NCBI GenBank assembly: GCA_030614005.1 | Contig: JAUWKS010000018.1 | Span: 26,068-58,067 of the forward strand | Direction of reading: 5' to 3' | From: Candidatus Heimdallarchaeota archaeon | Lineage (GTDB): Archaea; Asgardarchaeota; Heimdallarchaeia; JABLTI01 | DNA length: 32,000 bases | In this document: piece after piece, positions 6,316-16,241 of the stretch | Layout of the letters: each line of letters opens with the position of its first letter | Numbering within the stretch: the first letter of the stretch is position 1 | Notes under the pieces: model-generated | Told to the model about the DNA's origin: nothing | What the model saw: only the letters and a program-made list of their open reading frames with translations | Databases searched by the model: none | Program-made: the position numbers and the translations under genes

Positions 6316-8034
6316 ATGTCAGAACAAAGGTTTCCTTATTTGAAGTCGACTTTAGTAAGCTTTGGTTATTTTACCAACAACCTTACGTGGTCCGTTTTCA
6401 ATATCTTTGTTCCATTATTCCTAAGTGATAATTTAAAAGCTATCCTTGGTGATGTTCCTTACATCAACACACTCATTGGATTAATAATGATTTTAGATAA
6501 TATTGCATCTATTCTTATTCAACCTTACATAGGAGCATTATCTGATCGTACTTGGATTCCAAAATTAGGGAGAAGAATGCCCTTTGTTATTATTGGACTC
6601 CCACTTGCAGCATTTTTCTTTGGGCTTATCGGTACATTTCAATCAACAATGTTTGTCGTTTTAATCGGTATTTGTGGTTTTAATATTAGCATGGCATTTT
6701 ACAAGTCACCAGTGATGAGTTTAGTTCCAGATTTACTTCCAAAGGAGTACAGAAGCCAAGGTGCAGGTGTTCTCAATGTTGTCGGTGGAGTTGCGAGCAT
6801 ATCAGGACTCTTAATTGTTTCAAGTTTAATGGTTAATCATAGCAAATTTGCATTTTGGGCACTATCGATAATAATGATTATTTGTTTGGGTATTTTGTTA
6901 CTGACAGTTCGCGAAAAGAAAGACGTCGAAATTGTAAAAAGAGATGAGAAAATTGGACTTGGTACAACCCTTAAACGAATAGTGAAAGAACGAAATTTAC
7001 CTCTAATATTCATGTTACTCTCTGTTTTTTTCCATACTGCTGGATATAGTGTTGCTGAAACATTCATTAGTAGGTACTCAACTGATTTACTAGGGTTCCA
7101 TTCTAGCACAGCTGGACAAATTTTAGCCGCTTTCATCGGCTTTTCGGTCATTGCAGCTTTGCCTGCTGGTCTAGTAGGTAAAAGAATCGGTGCATTAAAT
7201 GCTGTTATTATTGGTGTTGTCGGTTTTACAGTCTCATTAATTCCTTTGACTATTATCAGCCTTCTTCCTGATCTAAGTATTATGAAAGATGTTTTGACAC
7301 TTAATACTATGCAGTCACCAATATTTACGTGGCAATTTTTGTTCTACTTTCTATTAGTATTCACTATGGGATTCAGTTATTTATTACTATCAATTAATTC
7401 AATAGTTGTTATTTGGAATCTTGCACCCGATAAAGAGACAGCAACGTATACTAGCTTTTTTTATGTTGCTTTACATATGGCAGCAATACTTAGCCCATTT
7501 ATCGCAGGGGTTATTTTCGATTTATATGCACTAAATTCATCAAAGAATGGCTCTGATTTCTCTGGTCTAAGAATTATGTTTGTGTATGTTATTGCCTGCT
7601 ATTTGTTTACAATCGGCTTTATTTCTCTAGTAAAGATATTTAGGAATAGACAATTGAAAGAAATTGAGGATAAAGATACTTACATACAACAACGTTTGGA
7701 GCAGAAGGAATATCCTCTACAATACATTCCAATGCTTCTCTTTGGTATAGGTACGCGAAGGCGGAAAGTAATTCTTGATTTGCGAAAAGAGCATCACGAA
7801 GAACAAAAGGAAATGGATGAACAAATTAGAAAGCTGCGAAAAAAGCAAATGTTTGTAGCAGAAGATTTGCCTGATGATGCTAAAGTTGTAGATGAACGCC
7901 ATAAGAAAACAATTGCTGATCATAGACAAATGAAGAAAGAAATGGTAAAGGAACAAAAGGAAAAAATAAGGGAAATGAGACAAGATATCATTGATGAGAA
8001 AATAAAGAAGAAACTAGAAGAAGAATATGATTGA
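6316..8034 (+). CDS. MFS transporter (GPH/SLC45-like sugar-cation symporter) with long charged C-terminal extension
   Basis: IQPYIGALSDRTWIPKLGRRMPF loop motif, 12 hydrophobic segments, LVPDLLPKEYRSQG. About 130 aa of K/E/R-rich tail follow. Confidence 0.9.
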   Translation: MSEQRFPYLKSTLVSFGYFTNNLTWSVFNIFVPLFLSDNLKAILGDVPYINTLIGLIMILDNIASILIQPYIGALSDRTWIPKLGRRMPFVIIGLPLAAFFFGLIGTFQSTMFVVLIGICGFNISMAFYKSPVMSLVPDLLPKEYRSQGAGVLNVVGGVASISGLLIVSSLMVNHSKFAFWALSIIMIICLGILLLTVREKKDVEIVKRDEKIGLGTTLKRIVKERNLPLIFMLLSVFFHTAGYSVAETFISRYSTDLLGFHSSTAGQILAAFIGFSVIAALPAGLVGKRIGALNAVIIGVVGFTVSLIPLTIISLLPDLSIMKDVLTLNTMQSPIFTWQFLFYFLLVFTMGFSYLLLSINSIVVIWNLAPDKETATYTSFFYVALHMAAILSPFIAGVIFDLYALNSSKNGSDFSGLRIMFVYVIACYLFTIGFISLVKIFRNRQLKEIEDKDTYIQQRLEQKEYPLQYIPMLLFGIGTRRRKVILDLRKEHHEEQKEMDEQIRKLRKKQMFVAEDLPDDAKVVDERHKKTIADHRQMKKEMVKEQKEKIREMRQDIIDEKIKKKLEEEYD

Positions 8035-8171: not shown

Positions 8172-9131
8172 ATGAGTGATGTTGAAGATTATGCTATTGT
8201 AGTTGAGGATTTGGTCAAAAAATATGGTGATTTAATAGCTGTAAATAATCTCTCTCTAAAAATAAAGCGAGGCGAGATTTTCGCTTTTCTTGGTCCGAAT
8301 GGTGCTGGAAAAACTACTGCTATTGAAATTCTTGAAGGTATTAGGAAAAAAACCAGTGGGAAAGTTATCGTTTTAGGAAAAGATATTGACAAACGAAAAG
8401 AGCTCGACCAAATAAAAAAAATCATTGGCACATTACCACAAGAATTCAATACGCATCTGAATTTAACAGTTAAAGAGAATCTTAGATTTTGGAGTAGAAT
8501 GTATGGGAAAAATATTCCAATTGAGGATTTAATAGCATTAGTTAAGCTTGAAGATAAAGCTAATGTACAATACAAAAATCTTTCAGGTGGTTTAAAACGT
8601 CGATTAGGTATTGCAATTTCACTTGTAAATGATCCTGAATTAGTATTCTTGGATGAACCTACAACTGGTCTTGATCCTCGTGCAAGACGGGAAACTTGGG
8701 AGATTATTAAGGGTCTTAAAGAACAAGGTAAAACGATTTTTTTGACAACTCATTATATGGAAGAAGCACATGTTTTAGCAGATAACGTTGGTATTATTTA
8801 CAAGGGAGAAATAATGGATATTGGTACTCCTACTGAATTAATCGATAAGCATGGTGGCGCTAACAAGATAATTGTTCGATGTAATGATCAAGAAACTCGC
8901 GATCAAATTTACAATATTCTCTTTGAGATGGGTCCTTTGGAAAATGACGATGGTGACATTGTTATTTCTGCTAAAAAGAAGGGAAGTATTTCCAAAGTGG
9001 TTGATTTACTTGAAGAAAATGATGTACCCTATTCTGATATAGTAACTCAAAGACCAACTCTAGAAGATATTTTTCTTACTCTAACAGGTGAGATATTGAT
9101 CACTTCAACAGAAACAGAGGAAAAGACTTGA
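8172..9131 (+). CDS. ABC-2 type exporter ATP-binding subunit
   Basis: Walker A GPNGAGKT, signature LSGG, Walker B LVFLDEPT and H-loop TTHY. Confidence 0.95.
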   Translation: MSDVEDYAIVVEDLVKKYGDLIAVNNLSLKIKRGEIFAFLGPNGAGKTTAIEILEGIRKKTSGKVIVLGKDIDKRKELDQIKKIIGTLPQEFNTHLNLTVKENLRFWSRMYGKNIPIEDLIALVKLEDKANVQYKNLSGGLKRRLGIAISLVNDPELVFLDEPTTGLDPRARRETWEIIKGLKEQGKTIFLTTHYMEEAHVLADNVGIIYKGEIMDIGTPTELIDKHGGANKIIVRCNDQETRDQIYNILFEMGPLENDDGDIVISAKKKGSISKVVDLLEENDVPYSDIVTQRPTLEDIFLTLTGEILITSTETEEKT

Positions 9132-9141
9132 GAGTGAAGAA

Positions 9142-10350
9142 ATGCCAGAACAAGAAACCTTCACTAAAAAAATATACTTGAGCCTTCGACGAATTTATGG
9201 TCAAACAGTAAGCACAGCAATACGTTGGGTTCGTTCAGGACCTGCATTGTTTTTCACATTTATCTATCCAATAATAATGATTCTTTTGTTTGGTTATATT
9301 TTCGGAGCAACAGACGATAGTTTGTATACATTGAATTACCTAAATGAAGATGTATATCAAGTTGGAGACAATACCTATGCTTTCAATCCCGCAAATCAAA
9401 TTTTACAAAATCTAGGATTAAATAACGATACACTTGCAGAAAGTTTGAACCTAAAATTGGTACAAGCATCTATTGAAACTTCATCAATTACTTACAATGA
9501 TTGGATGAAGAATAATGATATTCCCTATCTCTTGGTTATTCCATCTGGTTGGTCTGCTGCAGTTAATGAATCCAAAGTAAATGCGACAGCTCCTCAAGCA
9601 CTGATTGAATACTATTATGATCCCTCGTATACCTCTTCTAGCATCGTTCAAAGTATTATTGACAATGTTTTACAAGAAATGAACATAGCTGAATTTAGCA
9701 TTCCAACAGTGGTGGATGTTGTTGCAAGTACAACACCAAATAGAGAAGGATTAACTTACATAGATTTCATTGTTCCCGGTATGATAATGGTTACTATTTC
9801 AACTTCCAGTATGATGGGCATGGTTTCTATGGTTACAGAAGACCGGCAAAGTGGGAAAATAGATAAATATTCTGCCTCTCCACTTAAGAAATGGGAATGG
9901 GCATTATCACATGGATTGTGGCATACTTGTACTAGTTTTGCTATTTCAATTTTATCAGTCCTAACAGGTTGGATAGTTTTTGGTTTTCAATTGTCAACAA
10001 TTCATCCCTTAATGATTGGTGTTCTAATATTTGGTTCAATGACTTTTACTGGATTAGCTTTGGTGATCTCTAGATTTGTTAAGAAAACAGAAGCTGCAAT
10101 GGCTGCGACAATGTCTTTTGTTTTCCCTCAAATGTTCCTTTCAGGTGCGATACTTCCTGCAGAGATTATGCCAGATTTTATGCAAACAATTGCAAAAATC
10201 TTTCCACTTTATTATGTAAGCGAAGCAATGCGCAATATGATGTTGGAATCAACTTTTCATCTTGCATGGGTACCATTAGGTATTACCATAGGTATGGGTG
10301 TGGTGTTCTTTACAGTAGGGTCTATAATTACCGATTGGAGGAAAGAATAA
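9142..10350 (+). CDS. ABC-2 type permease with large extracellular domain
   Basis: One TM, an extracellular domain, then five TMs. YIDFIVPG, FPQMFLSG and PLYY motifs. Confidence 0.92.
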   Translation: MPEQETFTKKIYLSLRRIYGQTVSTAIRWVRSGPALFFTFIYPIIMILLFGYIFGATDDSLYTLNYLNEDVYQVGDNTYAFNPANQILQNLGLNNDTLAESLNLKLVQASIETSSITYNDWMKNNDIPYLLVIPSGWSAAVNESKVNATAPQALIEYYYDPSYTSSSIVQSIIDNVLQEMNIAEFSIPTVVDVVASTTPNREGLTYIDFIVPGMIMVTISTSSMMGMVSMVTEDRQSGKIDKYSASPLKKWEWALSHGLWHTCTSFAISILSVLTGWIVFGFQLSTIHPLMIGVLIFGSMTFTGLALVISRFVKKTEAAMAATMSFVFPQMFLSGAILPAEIMPDFMQTIAKIFPLYYVSEAMRNMMLESTFHLAWVPLGITIGMGVVFFTVGSIITDWRKE

Positions 10351-10362
10351 GGAGGAATAGCT

Positions 10363-11634
10363 ATGAAAAAAGACACAAGCATTCAGATAACCAATGAGGA
10401 TTCTAAACAAAGCAAAATAGCTTTCCTTACAAAGATACAACTATTTCTAAGAAGAGTTGGAGCATATATTGCTGCTGCGTTCATAGACTATAGAAGGTCA
10501 CCTTTGACAGTATTTTTCTCAGTTGCCTATCCGATAATTTTAATTCTACTTTTTGGAGCAATTTTTGCAGATAGCAATAACTCGTTCACTGCTTTCACAG
10601 TTTATGTGCAAAGTGAAGGAGATGAGGGATATGTGATTTCTCCAGTTCAGACACTTAATTTTACGGATGATCTCATTAATGCTTTGCAAACAATGAAAAC
10701 AAATGACAGTGAATCACTATTTGATGTTCATTTCATCCCACTAACGAATGACCAGAATGGTGCTATTAATCCTGGTGACTATCTTGAGGAAGTCCAAGGA
10801 TACATTTCTCTAGTAATACCCTTTAATTTCACTCAAGAAGTATTATTTAACCCGGATGTAACAAACCTTCAAATAATTCTGGATGAAAGTTCACAATCAG
10901 CATCTATTGCTTACAGTATTATTAGCAGTGTGATCTATCAATTCAATTTAGGTGTTTCAGGTTATAATGAAACTAAGATTGGGTTAGATACTTTTGATAT
11001 CTATTTGGAAGAAGAAATTGCTTACTTTGAATTTCTAATTCCTGGTATGATTTGTGTGGCACTGATGAATAATGGTGTAATGGGTACGATTAATAGATAT
11101 TCATTCTTTAGAAAACAAGGATTCTTCCGAAAACTATCAGCATCACCAATGAATAAAGCAGATGTTGTTGTTGGTGAAACTTCTTGGCAATTTGTTCAAG
11201 GAGCGATATCAATTATAGCTATTTTACTTGTAGGTTGGTTGGTATTTAAAGTACCGAGTGGAGATTTCAGTTGGATTATTAGAATTCTCGATTGGAAGAT
11301 TATTCTAGTAACAATATCAGCAGTTATGTCATTTGTTGGTTTGGGAATGATTGGATCAAGGCTCTCCAAGAATCCTGATGCAGCAACAGCTCTTGGCAAT
11401 TTCCTTACTTTCCCGATGATGTTCTTGAGCGGAGCATTTTTCGATGTATCTGGTGTGCCTGGAGTAAATGTCATATCAAAATTGTTACCCTTAACCTATT
11501 TGATAGATGCACTCCGTGCGACAATGATAACGGGAAACGTATCCATTGCCTGGATTAATATTGGAATAAGCTTTGCATTTGGAACTGCTTTAATGATAAT
11601 TGGCATTCTAATTACAAAACTAACAGAAGAATAA
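10363..11634 (+). CDS. ABC-2 type permease (second, paralogous)
   Basis: YFEFLIPG, FPMMFLSGAFF and LPLTY motifs; same topology as the preceding gene. Confidence 0.92.
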   Translation: MKKDTSIQITNEDSKQSKIAFLTKIQLFLRRVGAYIAAAFIDYRRSPLTVFFSVAYPIILILLFGAIFADSNNSFTAFTVYVQSEGDEGYVISPVQTLNFTDDLINALQTMKTNDSESLFDVHFIPLTNDQNGAINPGDYLEEVQGYISLVIPFNFTQEVLFNPDVTNLQIILDESSQSASIAYSIISSVIYQFNLGVSGYNETKIGLDTFDIYLEEEIAYFEFLIPGMICVALMNNGVMGTINRYSFFRKQGFFRKLSASPMNKADVVVGETSWQFVQGAISIIAILLVGWLVFKVPSGDFSWIIRILDWKIILVTISAVMSFVGLGMIGSRLSKNPDAATALGNFLTFPMMFLSGAFFDVSGVPGVNVISKLLPLTYLIDALRATMITGNVSIAWINIGISFAFGTALMIIGILITKLTEE

Positions 11635-11819: not shown

Positions 11820-11870
11820 CGTTTCTTGCAACTAATAAGAATATACTATCGTGAAAGGAGAATAAACTTT

Positions 11871-12362
11871 TTGAAACCACTAAGTCTCTGTTTAGTTCAA
11901 ATGGGTGATAAAGGATTGGAGATGGTGTCCTCACATCCCAAAGTTTTACCAAAGGAAGTTCTGAATGAATTGACCTACAAGTCAATGCCTATGGGAGCTA
12001 AAGCAGGAGAATTTGCTTCCTCCTCTGTAGGTGATTTATTTTACTCAAGTTATATCTTTTCTTTGCCAAGAGAAGGGTCTCGAGACAATATTTGTGCTAT
12101 AATTGCTGTTTTTAATGACATGAAGTACAATATTGACGGAATTAGAAAAATTTTCTCGTTTTTAATTAAGGAATTAGAAACAAACACTCTCCTAAAATTG
12201 GATCTAATAGAGGAAATATTGCCTAATCTCTATAATGGTTTTAGTAAAGGAAATATTCGAATAAAAATTAGCTCAGTAGCGACAATAACAATTGATTTTG
12301 AAAATAAAACAGAAGAACCGATTGATGAAACAAATGTTCTAGAAGACGACTTATGGAAATAA
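11871..12362 (+). CDS. uDENN/longin-domain protein (FLCN/SMCR8/NPRL2-like), candidate GAP
   Basis: LCLVQMGDKGLEMVSSHP beta-hairpin, helix ending YKSMP, then YSSYIFSLPREGSRDNICAIIAVF. TTG 11871 preferred over 11826 because of the promoter and SD positions. Confidence 0.7.
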   Translation: MKPLSLCLVQMGDKGLEMVSSHPKVLPKEVLNELTYKSMPMGAKAGEFASSSVGDLFYSSYIFSLPREGSRDNICAIIAVFNDMKYNIDGIRKIFSFLIKELETNTLLKLDLIEEILPNLYNGFSKGNIRIKISSVATITIDFENKTEEPIDETNVLEDDLWK

Positions 12363-12390: not shown

Positions 12391-12930
12391 GTGTCATTTC
12401 TACGAAATCTCTTCAAAAGAAGAACAAAAGAAGTCGATATAACGATTTGTGGTTTAGCCAGCGCAGGAAAAACAACTATTGTGAGATATCTTGAGACTGG
12501 TCAATTTGTGGAAACACAACCAACAATGGGTATCAACCGTGGTGAGACAATTAAAGTTGAAAAACTTGAAATAAATATTTTTGATCTAGGTGGGCAAGAT
12601 GATTTCAGAGTTCTCTGGCCCGAAGTTAATGAAAATTCAAATGGCGTAGTTTTTGTTGTTGATAAACACGATGCAATGAAATTTGAAGAGGCTCGTCTAG
12701 CATTTCAAGAAATTGTCAAATCACAAATACATGAAGATGTTATTGTACTTATTTTATTACACAAAAATGATATTCCTGGAGGAATGGCTCGAAGCACTTT
12801 CATTCAAGACTTTGATTTAATTGATTTATCATTTAAATGGGCATGCTATGAAACTTCTGCAAAAACAGGTGAGAACATCTTCGAAGCATTCAGATGGTTT
12901 TTTGATCAATTAATGGAGGAATCTTCTTAA
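12391..12930 (+). CDS. Arf-family small GTPase
   Basis: N-terminal amphipathic helix MSFLRNLF, G1 GLASAGKTT, G2 PTMG, G3 DLGGQ, G4 HKND and G5 SAK. Confidence 0.93.
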   Translation: MSFLRNLFKRRTKEVDITICGLASAGKTTIVRYLETGQFVETQPTMGINRGETIKVEKLEINIFDLGGQDDFRVLWPEVNENSNGVVFVVDKHDAMKFEEARLAFQEIVKSQIHEDVIVLILLHKNDIPGGMARSTFIQDFDLIDLSFKWACYETSAKTGENIFEAFRWFFDQLMEESS

Positions 12931-13784: not shown

Positions 13785-14012
13785 GGGAAACATTCCTCTA
13801 TCTCTACTTTTTTTGGTTTTGAATATTTTTCTACAAGATGTTCTGTATCACTTTTTTGTTATCAATTGCGATGTCTTTAAATAGATGATTGGTGACTACT
13901 CTCTCGCTGGTTAGATAATCTCTAATCAACGGTGAGTGAGTTGACCTAACTCGGTTTTTAGAGTTTAAAATTCGAAGTGGATTGTGAGTTGACCGACCGT
14001 CCCTCTACTAGT

Positions 14013-14512: not shown

Positions 14513-15706
14513 TTATTTTTGTGGGAATCCATCAAAACCTAGCCGAGTCATTCGAATGAAATCAGATAACATCTTTAAGATTGTTCCACCAATTACTACC
14601 CACACAACAATTGTTGCTATGGTTTGGAAGGTATCTGCAGTGATATAGGTTTGAACGAATCCAAATACCCAATCATAGGCAATTTCACGTCTATAGAGAA
14701 TTGCATGGTAAAGTGCGATATTAAATCCTTGAGGTGCAAGGCCAAGAAAGAGTAATGCTTGTTGTAATCCAACTCTTCTGCCGACTAAAGCTTGGAAGAA
14801 GCGTATGAATCCTAATACCAATCCTGTTACACCTGTGAGTGCAAACCAGATTTTCAGTTGATCTGGTAGAAAGTCTAGGAATGGCATGAAAGGAAGAATT
14901 ATTGCTATTACACCAAATGCTATGCCCATAATTCCTTCAGAAAGATAATCTTTTCCAAGATGTTTATGTCGTTTTCCCATTCTAGGTGTTGGTTCTGTAA
15001 TAGTTCTTACAGGTCTTTCCTTTACCACTTGTGGTTCTATAACTGGTTTAGTTAGCGGGACTGTTTCATACTTTTCTTCGTGAATAGAAGCTGCACGTGT
15101 ATCTTCCTTCTTTGGTTCGTCTGCTGCTCTAAATCTATCAAAAGGAATATGAAAAACAAATCTCTTTCCTAACCGATCGAAATCTTCTGGTAGATATCCT
15201 TCATGGGATAGATAGATGAATTGTACTGTAATAAGTACTAAAGCAATTGCAACACTCATCATTGAACCTGATATCCAACTTGAAAATAGCTCTCCAACAC
15301 CAATACTACCATTGACAGTTGAAGGTATTCTAGTAAACATTACTAAGAGATTAATTCCAAGTAGTACTCCAGCAACGATATAGACAACTTTAGTGTAACC
15401 TGTCCACAATTCCTCTGTGATGAAGAATTTTGGTTTGCCTCGTCGTTTGTATTCTCCAGCAATTTTGCTTGGAGTGCCCATCTGATCAATGACTTGTTTT
15501 ATATCCTCTATTGATGGTTCTTCTCCATCAGCCAATTCAGTTGCTCTATCCCAAATATGGGTTTCAAGCTCTTCTAGGATGTCAACTACATTCTTTTTCT
15601 CATCTTTTAACCAGAATGGTAGCTTTCTTTCAACTTCATCCAAGAATTCTTTGACAAGTCTTTGATCTTCGCTTAAATTTTCTAAATTATTTTTGTTTTC
15701 ACTCAT
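14513..15706 (-). CDS. HAAS-domain membrane protein (PadR partner)
   Basis: N-terminal FLDEVERKLP..DILEELETHI..G..IDQMGTPSKIAGEY matches the HAAS signalling domain. TM helices and a Pro/charged loop follow. Lies 4 nt downstream of the PadR gene. Confidence 0.8.
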   Translation of the reverse strand: MSENKNNLENLSEDQRLVKEFLDEVERKLPFWLKDEKKNVVDILEELETHIWDRATELADGEEPSIEDIKQVIDQMGTPSKIAGEYKRRGKPKFFITEELWTGYTKVVYIVAGVLLGINLLVMFTRIPSTVNGSIGVGELFSSWISGSMMSVAIALVLITVQFIYLSHEGYLPEDFDRLGKRFVFHIPFDRFRAADEPKKEDTRAASIHEEKYETVPLTKPVIEPQVVKERPVRTITEPTPRMGKRHKHLGKDYLSEGIMGIAFGVIAIILPFMPFLDFLPDQLKIWFALTGVTGLVLGFIRFFQALVGRRVGLQQALLFLGLAPQGFNIALYHAILYRREIAYDWVFGFVQTYITADTFQTIATIVVWVVIGGTILKMLSDFIRMTRLGFDGFPQK

Positions 15707-15710
15707 TACA

Positions 15711-16241
15711 TCACGCCCTCTGACTAATTAACTCCTCTACAAAAATACCACAAACTTCGCAGTATTTTGCATCAACATCCAATTTGATTTGATTTGCACA
15801 GTTAGGACAATACATAAACTCATCTTCAGGGAGATCGATTCCAAACTCCATCAAAGGAGATATTGCTTCAAGAAGTTTAGCAAAAAATCCTGTCATATGA
15901 TTTAGTAGTTTATGTCCTGCATCCGTTAAGATGTAATATCTTCTCGGGCGGCCCGTTAATTCTTTCTTTTCAGACTTGAGAACTCCACCTTTCTCCATTT
16001 TTCGTAATAGTGGGTACAATGTTCCTTCCTCAATAATCAGTACATTGTTTGTTTCTTGTTCTAATTCTTTTAGTAATTGATATCCATAGATTCCTTCATC
16101 GGGATATCGTTTGAGGATTTGTAATACCGTAACGGTAGATATTCCTCGTAGTAATTCTGATTCAAAGCTTTCAACGTATGTTCTAAAGTGGTCATTGCCG
16201 ATCAATGCTTCCGGGTGGAATGATTTTACTTTTTTTAACAC
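15711..16241 (-). CDS. PadR-family transcriptional regulator with C-terminal zinc ribbon
   Basis: YGYQLLKEL, EGTLYPLLRKME and RPRRYYILTDAG, then CPNC...CEVC. Confidence 0.92.
   Translation of the reverse strand: MLKKVKSFHPEALIGNDHFRTYVESFESELLRGISTVTVLQILKRYPDEGIYGYQLLKELEQETNNVLIIEEGTLYPLLRKMEKGGVLKSEKKELTGRPRRYYILTDAGHKLLNHMTGFFAKLLEAISPLMEFGIDLPEDEFMYCPNCANQIKLDVDAKYCEVCGIFVEELISQRA

Follow-up and report, generated by a model that had tools for sequence, protein, structure and literature searches.

Results and Discussion

Three adjacent genes for a longin, an Arf-family GTPase and a 7TM protein

The window analysed here is a stretch of 32,000 nucleotides from a Candidatus Heimdallarchaeota archaeon (assembly GCA_030614005.1, contig JAUWKS010000018.1, positions 26,068 to 58,067 of the forward strand), and its subject is a compact group of three forward-strand genes. 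The first, P0001 (11871..12362), encodes a stand-alone protein of 163 amino acids (aa) that is predicted to be an NPRL2-like longin. It is followed, 28 nt downstream, by P0002 (12391..12930), which starts with GTG and encodes a 179-aa Arf-family GTPase (Pfam Arf, E 4e-37). The third gene, P0003 (12930..13784), has an ATG that overlaps the TAA stop of P0002 (TAATG) and encodes a 284-aa membrane protein with seven helices in its AlphaFold2 (AF2) model, called here the seven-transmembrane (7TM) protein. The initial annotation of P0001, made from the sequence, had proposed that its Arg71 stands at the position of the arginine finger with which the eukaryotic longins FLCN, SMCR8 and NPRL2 act as GTPase-activating proteins (GAPs), and that the neighbouring GTPase is its likely substrate.

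The start of P0001 was placed at the TTG at 11871 because its homologues begin MKP(L/V/I)SLCLVQMG and because a Shine-Dalgarno-like AAAGGAG is found at 11854..11860, 10 nt 5' of this codon. All of the named homologues come from Heimdallarchaeota or 'Asgard group' metagenome-assembled genomes (MAGs). A longer open reading frame (ORF) from 11826, the start given in the ORF track, was rejected, as the homologue N-termini do not fit it. Translation from the TTG makes the arginine residue 71, as originally counted, with the codon CGA at 12081-12083. It lies within the segment that had been singled out (12033..12110, residues 55-80), which comprises strand 4, the loop PREGSRD and strand 5 when DSSP is run on the model (E56-65 and E73-81), and residues 63-78 of which read FSLPREGSRDNICAII.

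P0002 is assigned to the Arf family, on sequence grounds, by its profile match, its G motifs, its catalytic Gln and its N-terminal amphipathic helix. Its best sequence matches in the PDB are eukaryotic Arf1 (about E 1e-28), its motifs are a P-loop GLASAGKT, DLGGQ (residues 65-69), HKND and SAK, and the amphipathic helix, MSFLxxLFK, is conserved. The catalytic Gln69, which the neighbouring GTPase had been said to keep, is indeed present (codon CAA, 12595..12597) and does not vary among 35 relatives. Where G-alpha proteins have an Arg of their own, three residues ahead of the switch I Thr45, P0002 has Thr42. As this residue is Thr and not Arg, supply of an Arg in trans is plausible. The G4 motif HKND (residues 124-127, 12760-12771) departs from NKxD, with H in about half of the close relatives and N in the rest; HKxD is the Rag/Gtr form of this motif, which is worth noting beside an NPRL2-like partner.

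Sequence searches with P0001

Sequence searches did not assign P0001 to any family. It had no match in Pfam at E up to 10, and searches of NCBIfam, of the PDB with phmmer and of the PDB with profiles returned noise only. When 46 family members were scanned against Pfam, the best match was C9orf72-like (PF15019) at E 0.029, in 2 members, and a scan of 7 distant members gave nothing usable (uDENN, PF03456, at E 0.2 in one). P0001 thus has no significant profile match to NPR2 (PF06218), C9orf72-like or uDENN, and none of the databases searched has a name for its family. In one related Atlas cluster, 19% of the members carry PF06218, and we take this as a lead only.

The three eukaryotic strings with which P0001 had been compared proved correct against PDB chains: R164 lies in folliculin 154-175, R147 in SMCR8 138-159 (HLTLYDLEARGFVRPFCMAYIS) and R78 in NPRL2 62-92, while NPRL2 6-37 contains TLGPKITYQVP. 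Taken alone, the short string match of P0001 to these proteins is not significant, and a string like F.LPR....DNI arises by chance in cadherin repeats. Alignment by hhalign of the family profile with the verified 31-aa NPRL2 fragment was not meaningful either, so that structure and motif, and not sequence statistics, are the basis for the register of R71 with R78. The significance of the Arg71 likeness comes from the fold, the conservation of the Arg and the gene context. Five putative longin homologues (P0071, P0092, P0093, P0097 and P0108) were rejected as giant cadherin-repeat proteins that share a short strand motif only. With up to 14 repeats of those proteins carrying it, this motif (F.LPRD..QDNIYEI) inflates the family count.

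These results bear on the possibility that Arg71 is purely structural, for instance by forming a salt bridge that stiffens the β4-β5 loop, in which case its likeness to a finger would be coincidental and P0001 may not act on P0002. The lack of any link to NPRL2, FLCN or SMCR8 by the sequence methods, and the chance occurrence of similar short strings in cadherin repeats, are in favour of this explanation. However, the fold match described below spans about 145 residues including an extra hairpin, the synteny holds across classes, the complex model compares well with its controls, and the conserved surface falls on the predicted interface. A purely structural Arg71 is therefore regarded as very improbable.

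Fold and structural relatives of P0001

An AF2 model of P0001 was made from 34 homologues, with a predicted local distance difference test score (pLDDT) of 74 and a predicted template modelling score (pTM) of 0.68. DSSP assigned strands 5-12 and 15-22, a helix 28-38, strands 48-53, 56-65 and 73-81, and helices 88-104 and 110-126. This order, bb-a-bbb-aa, is that of longins, and in the model it is followed by a β-hairpin (128-142) and a disordered tail. Arg71 sits in the β4-β5 loop, between E56-65 and E73-81. A roadblock or MglB-type fold was rejected, since the model opens with the strand 5-12 and closes its core with two helices, with no N-terminal helix first.

Foldseek ranked NPRL2 chains of GATOR1 first among PDB structures (E 1e-6, TM 0.73). 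Among Swiss-Prot models, the NPRL2 proteins of fly, human, cow and mouse came out on top, with TM up to 0.74 and a root-mean-square deviation (rmsd) of 2.7-2.8, P0001 2-143 being aligned with NPRL2 6-159. The named matches among AFDB clusters were mostly NPRL2, Npr2 or TUSC4, with a TM of 0.65-0.73 for NPRL2. VIA-align gave the same ranking: NPRL2 scored Z 14.0-16.7 across 142-149 residues at an rmsd of 2.6-3.8, and in the best of these matches 144 of 145 model residues were placed on NPRL2 5-161 (rmsd 2.6). Next came a Lokiarchaeal Roadblock-Longin protein (Z 13.1), NPRL3 (Z 12.3), folliculin (Z about 11), the longins of DENND1/10 (Z about 10), chains of C9orf72-SMCR8 complexes (Z 9.6-9.8), and the longins of SNAREs (Ykt6, Sec22), AP sigma/mu and TRAPP (Z 8-10). 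A literature search found no paper on the solved Lokiarchaeal Roadblock-Longin and LokiRagM structures.

By VIA-align, P0001 thus resembles the GAP longins more closely in structure than it does the longins of SNAREs, adaptors or TRAPP, and its model is specifically NPRL2-like, including the hairpin past the longin core, rather than that of a generic longin. The longin fold of the initial annotation is borne out by the model and by its nearest solved relatives. Its kinship with the FLCN/SMCR8/GATOR1 type held for GATOR1, NPRL2 being closest with Z up to 16.7, but FLCN and SMCR8 were not the closest relatives.

Conservation of Arg71 and its surroundings

Arg71 was present in 33 of the 34 close homologues. 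In contrast R67, which had been named as the control residue, varied freely among them; as it was variable also in the wider family, it was rejected as an alternative finger. Neither a non-longin fold nor a variable R71, both of which the initial annotation had listed as counting against it, was found. Invariant in the 34 close homologues were M11, G12, G15, P23, K37, P40, F63, N73 and I74, while M39 and A43 were conserved in at least 90%. M11, G12 and G15 belong to the β1-β2 loop with codons M11-L16 (QMGxKGL, 11901..11918), and M39, P40 and A43 to the conserved loop after helix 1 with codons M39-A45 (MPMGAKA, 11985..12005).

A family tree was built from 64 members, including paralogues from the same genome and members from another Asgard class. 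Arg71 was kept in every major clade, and was lost in one clade of eight sequences (which have E, E, L, Q, Q, K, E and K) and in three single sequences. The clade without the Arg also lacks Q10-M11-G12 and N73. Three of its members have enough sequence context for their neighbours to be read (L011 of this genome, P0086 and P0079), and none of them adjoins an Arf or 7TM gene.

In SMCR8, C9orf72, FLCN and NPRL2 a 'GP' motif adjoins the arginine finger; its role has been proposed, not experimentally tested (PMC12290439). In the alignment, G15-L16 of P0001 appears in the place of this motif. Positions 15-16 are G-P in the basal clades of the family (LGPEI, MGPKI, KGPEV), N-P in another clade and G-L in the clade of P0001. 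With a gapless offset of +7, S70-R71 would pair with S77-R78 of NPRL2, and with an offset of +5, G15 and P23 would pair with G20 and P28; both registers are our reading, and both are permitted by the ranges of the structural alignments. In particular, the placing of model residues 1-145 on NPRL2 5-161 by VIA-align is compatible with the +7 offset. The proposed equivalence of R71 to R78, R164 and R147 is based on its position in the same loop, on the motif SR(D)N against SRN, and on the complex model described next.

Predicted complex of P0001 and P0002

The complex was modelled with two copies of the longin, P0002, GTP and Mg, each protein being given its own alignment. Only the GTPase was scored, and the output consists of contacts between protein residues. 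The interaction score ipSAE was 0.75, compared with 0.01 for the best of three controls. Among solved complexes 58 of 80 attain that mark, as do 2 of 110 mismatched pairs; these figures are a rough guide here, since the alignments were our own and ligands were included. The runs agreed in at least 94% of contacts, and the pLDDT of the partner was at least 86. The model supports binding of P0001 to P0002 and does not show it.

On the longin side the predicted interface consists of residues 11-16, 36, 39-45, 64 and 70-74, and on the GTPase side of residues 23-24 in the P-loop (which we take to be the positions of Ras G12/G13), 41-50 in switch I and 69-72 in switch II, including Gln69. Arg71 contacts S24 of the P-loop and residues 41-44 of P0002, the longin loop 11-16 contacts residues 69-72 with Gln69, and the loop M39-A45 is predicted to contact switch I residues 43-49. 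The longin residues with the strongest conservation fall in this interface. The placement of Arg71 in the model is that expected of a finger-type GAP. The proposal that the GTPase beside the longin is its likely substrate gains from both the conserved operon partnership, described in the next section, and these predicted contacts of the P-loop and switch I with Arg71.

Could P0001 instead be an exchange factor, or a platform specific for one nucleotide state, in the manner of TRAPP, Mon1-Ccz1, DENN or Ragulator? Arg71 would then serve binding rather than catalysis, for example by contacting switch I or the P-loop backbone. An interface over the P-loop and both switches is typical also of such factors, the longins of DENND1 and DENND10 appear among the structural matches (Z about 10), and most longin and roadblock regulators of small GTPases are exchange factors or scaffolds, as is stated also in Tran et al. 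2024 (PMC10933270). However, the best structural matches by a clear margin were the GAP subunit NPRL2 and its partners, and the high-scoring complex model had GTP and Mg bound. Moreover, a conserved loop Arg near the β1-β2 Gly is a signature of GAP longins and not of other longins (PMC12290439). Overall, a function in exchange or as a platform seems unlikely to us.

Gene context of the longin family

The order longin, Arf GTPase, 7TM is kept in a close relative and in three diverged paralogous or orthologous loci of other MAGs. The genome itself (3.6 Mb, 90% complete) has six longin paralogues (contigs C18, C74, C10, C16 and C21, loci L007-L011). Three of these six are in longin-Arf-7TM cassettes, and one is solitary and lacks the Arg, the QMG loop and N73. 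The five 7TM proteins that follow longin genes are mutually homologous (E 1e-17 to 1e-58). The three cassette GTPases are the top three of 28 small-GTPase matches in the genome, and are followed in rank by two orphan Arf-like genes, C9:70338-70862 (E 1e-56) and C73:19170-19697 (E 3e-49). These two orphan GTPases might serve the longin-7TM pairs that have no GTPase gene.

The AF2 model of P0003 (pLDDT 87) contains seven long helices, a short hairpin in the loop that precedes helix 5, and two short C-terminal helices. Its matches to PDB structures were weak (E 7e-3, TM 0.4-0.6) and were not relied on, although all of the top 50 were G-protein-coupled receptors. This protein has the conserved motifs CRHILRD, where helix 3 ends, and Y.GW..P.W..R.R.K.W, at the C-terminus.

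More widely, the longin family was found in 26 of 200 sampled genomes of the phylum, distributed over three families of the same class and two families outside it (13 of 40 and 1 of 3 genomes). The layout outside the class (L012, L013, L016 and L018) is different, with a longin, two 6-7TM proteins of about 215 aa and an Arf-domain protein of about 300 aa that has a C-terminal extension. The three gene types, longin, Arf and 7TM, thus stay together across deep divergence despite a changed order. The C-terminal 120 aa of the larger Arf-domain protein may be roadblock- or longin-like, to judge from a weak Atlas lead and the sequence pattern, which would give it a Rag-like architecture. L013 carries two such distant cassettes in tandem.

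Proposed action of P0001 on P0002

From the fold, the conservation, the synteny and the controlled complex prediction we infer a catalytic function, a dimer and a role for the 7TM protein as follows. P0001 would be a stand-alone longin-domain protein of the NPRL2/FLCN/SMCR8 type, acting probably as a dimer, that docks on GTP-bound P0002. Its M11-L16 loop and its 39-45 loop would clamp switch II (with Gln69) and switch I. Arg71, from the β4-β5 loop, would insert between the P-loop and switch I into the nucleotide pocket and, as an arginine finger, accelerate GTP hydrolysis. The 7TM protein would most likely provide the membrane site or the input of the switch. That P0001 is an arginine-finger GAP for the adjacent P0002 is the reading that we favour, and we hold it with a confidence only a little above even.

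Several points weigh against it. Eukaryotic longin GAPs are heterodimers in large complexes, and the cassette has a single longin gene; of the two modelled longin copies, the second one contacts P0002 at residues 33 and 36 and nowhere else. Longin and roadblock platforms are, for the most part, exchange factors or scaffolds rather than GAPs. The score of the complex may partly be memory of the solved GATOR1-Rag, FLCN-Rag and C9orf72-SMCR8-ARF1 structures, in which case it would express likeness only. The Pro of the 'GP' motif (PMC12290439) is Leu in the P0001 subfamily. The loss of the Arg together with the loss of the cassette is essentially one evolutionary event, and so is suggestive only. 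Finally, two of the six longin paralogues keep the Arg and are directly followed by a 7TM gene, with no GTPase gene between. Adjacency to a GTPase gene is therefore not obligatory, and a 7TM gene follows the longin in five of the six paralogous loci compared with three of six for a GTPase gene, making the 7TM protein the more constant neighbour.

This last observation suits a function as an adaptor or effector, in which the longin would join the GTP-bound GTPase to the 7TM protein or the membrane and leave both hydrolysis and exchange unchanged. The disordered tail of P0001, with its invariant Trp (DDLWK), would be a possible docking motif for such an adaptor. However, an adaptor function does not account for the position of the Arg at the P-loop and switch I, and it leaves unexplained the joint decay of the Arg and the switch-binding motifs after the cassette was lost. 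We judge this function to be distinctly unlikely.

In this locus a small soluble longin is matched with an Arf-like GTPase, and P0001 is a candidate for the factor that switches off an archaeal Arf. Should GAP activity depend on Arg71, longin arginine-finger catalysis would predate eukaryotes and its ancestral form would be single-domain. A broader proposal is that the three genes make up a complete membrane-anchored switch, in which the 7TM protein, shaped like a G-protein-coupled receptor, would load or recruit the GTPase and a longin dimer would inactivate it through Arg71. Duplicated as a block, this switch would give up to five parallel channels per cell. We put this proposal forward tentatively, and consider that as a whole it is improbable. 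Were it true, the switch would be an archaeal precursor of the eukaryotic logic (membrane protein, small GTPase, longin GAP) at the lysosome, where GATOR1/FLCN work with Rag, and PQLC2 with C9orf72-SMCR8 and Arf.

Relation to known systems

NPRL2 (yeast Npr2), the catalytic longin of GATOR1/SEACIT and the GAP for RagA/B (Gtr1), is the best structural match to P0001, with the hairpin after the longin core included. Further points of likeness are the Arg at the end of the β4-β5 loop (SRDN in P0001, SRN with R78 in NPRL2) and the conserved β1-β2 Gly (G20 of TLGP in NPRL2). Unlike NPRL2, P0001 is a stand-alone protein of only 163 aa, lacks the C-terminal NPRL2 domains and has no NPRL3 or DEPDC5 partner genes. 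It also has no Pfam NPR2 match, has Leu for the Pro of 'GP', and is encoded in an operon, with a partner P0002 that is plain Arf-type, without the roadblock domain of Rag. Folliculin-FNIP, a GAP for RagC/D, and C9orf72-SMCR8, a GAP for Arf1/6, have the longin fold and the Arg in the same loop as P0001, but they match it less well in structure, contain DENN domains and are heterodimers. C9orf72-SMCR8 is nevertheless relevant, since it acts on Arf GTPases, the family of P0002 (PMC12290439).

A resemblance of another kind is found in MglB-MglA and in the actinobacterial conservon, where a small platform-fold regulator is placed beside a Ras-superfamily GTPase, as P0001 is beside P0002. The conservon operon also includes a membrane sensor. 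The regulators of these systems have the roadblock order with an N-terminal helix, and MglB supplies no arginine finger, MglA having its own. By contrast, P0001 has a predicted longin fold and, as the regulator, carries the Arg itself.

Within the Asgard archaea, the 'Folliculin/SMCR8 longin domain-containing' proteins of PMC12290439 and the NPRL2-like asCOGs of Liu et al. come from the same phylum as P0001 and share its fold class and Arg, and the basal members of the P0001 family carry a true GP as do the Asgard longins of PMC12290439. The Asgard entries of AFDB that are named 'Folliculin/SMCR8 longin domain-containing protein' have a TM of only 0.46-0.47 to the P0001 model, and the P0001 family is therefore taken to be separate from them.

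The concept of Asgard longins with an arginine finger is already published. NPRL2-like longin asCOGs in Asgard archaea were described by Liu et al. 2020 (bioRxiv 10.1101/2020.10.19.343400), and Asgard longins with a GP motif as well as an arginine finger were described in Traffic 2025 (PMC12290439, section 2.6). Both papers propose such longins as possible GAPs for ArfR or Rag-like GTPases, and PMC12290439 asks whether ArfR or Rag/Gtr GTPases partner the Arg-bearing Asgard longins. The passages of Liu et al. in which NPRL2 or longin occurs name other operons, and not longin-Arf-7TM. Word searches of PMC12290439, of two Asgard Arf papers and of Tran et al. 2024 found, in the passages so located, no analysis of gene context that pairs such longins with a GTPase. 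According to Tran et al. 2024, the GTPases of MK-D1 are generally outside operons with longin or roadblock genes, which makes their matching to regulators hard (PMC10933270). In Zhu et al. 2025, a structure-based search of Asgard proteomes for Arf GAPs is reported to have found none that was convincing, and the identities of the AArf regulators are said to 'remain to be established' (PMC11914678).

The present analysis adds an NPRL2-like family that had no name, the conserved association of this family with a 7TM protein and an Arf-like GTPase, and the geometry predicted for it. It has been demonstrated that Asgard Arf-like GTPases behave as membrane-binding switches whose intrinsic hydrolysis is very low.

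Other features of the locus

The last residues of P0001, 143-163 (12297-12359), are acidic and disordered and contain an invariant Trp (DDLWK/R); this tail may serve to dock the longin on the membrane or on the 7TM protein. The longins of the distant clade end in KGSFF where the P0001 clade has DDLWK/R. On the 5' side, the cassette is separated from a major facilitator superfamily (MFS) gene (6316-8034) by three genes (8172-11634), one for an ABC transporter ATPase and two that are permease-like. In the locus of the close relative (L001) the MFS gene is directly 5' of the longin gene, and the ABC ATPase and permease-like genes are therefore read as an insertion or deletion difference between the two. 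On the 3' side, a run of seven T at 13808..13814 on the forward strand, past the last gene, is possibly an archaeal terminator. Farther downstream, on the reverse strand (14513-16241), are genes for a PadR-family regulator and a HAAS-domain membrane protein, which occupy the same place in the relative's locus.

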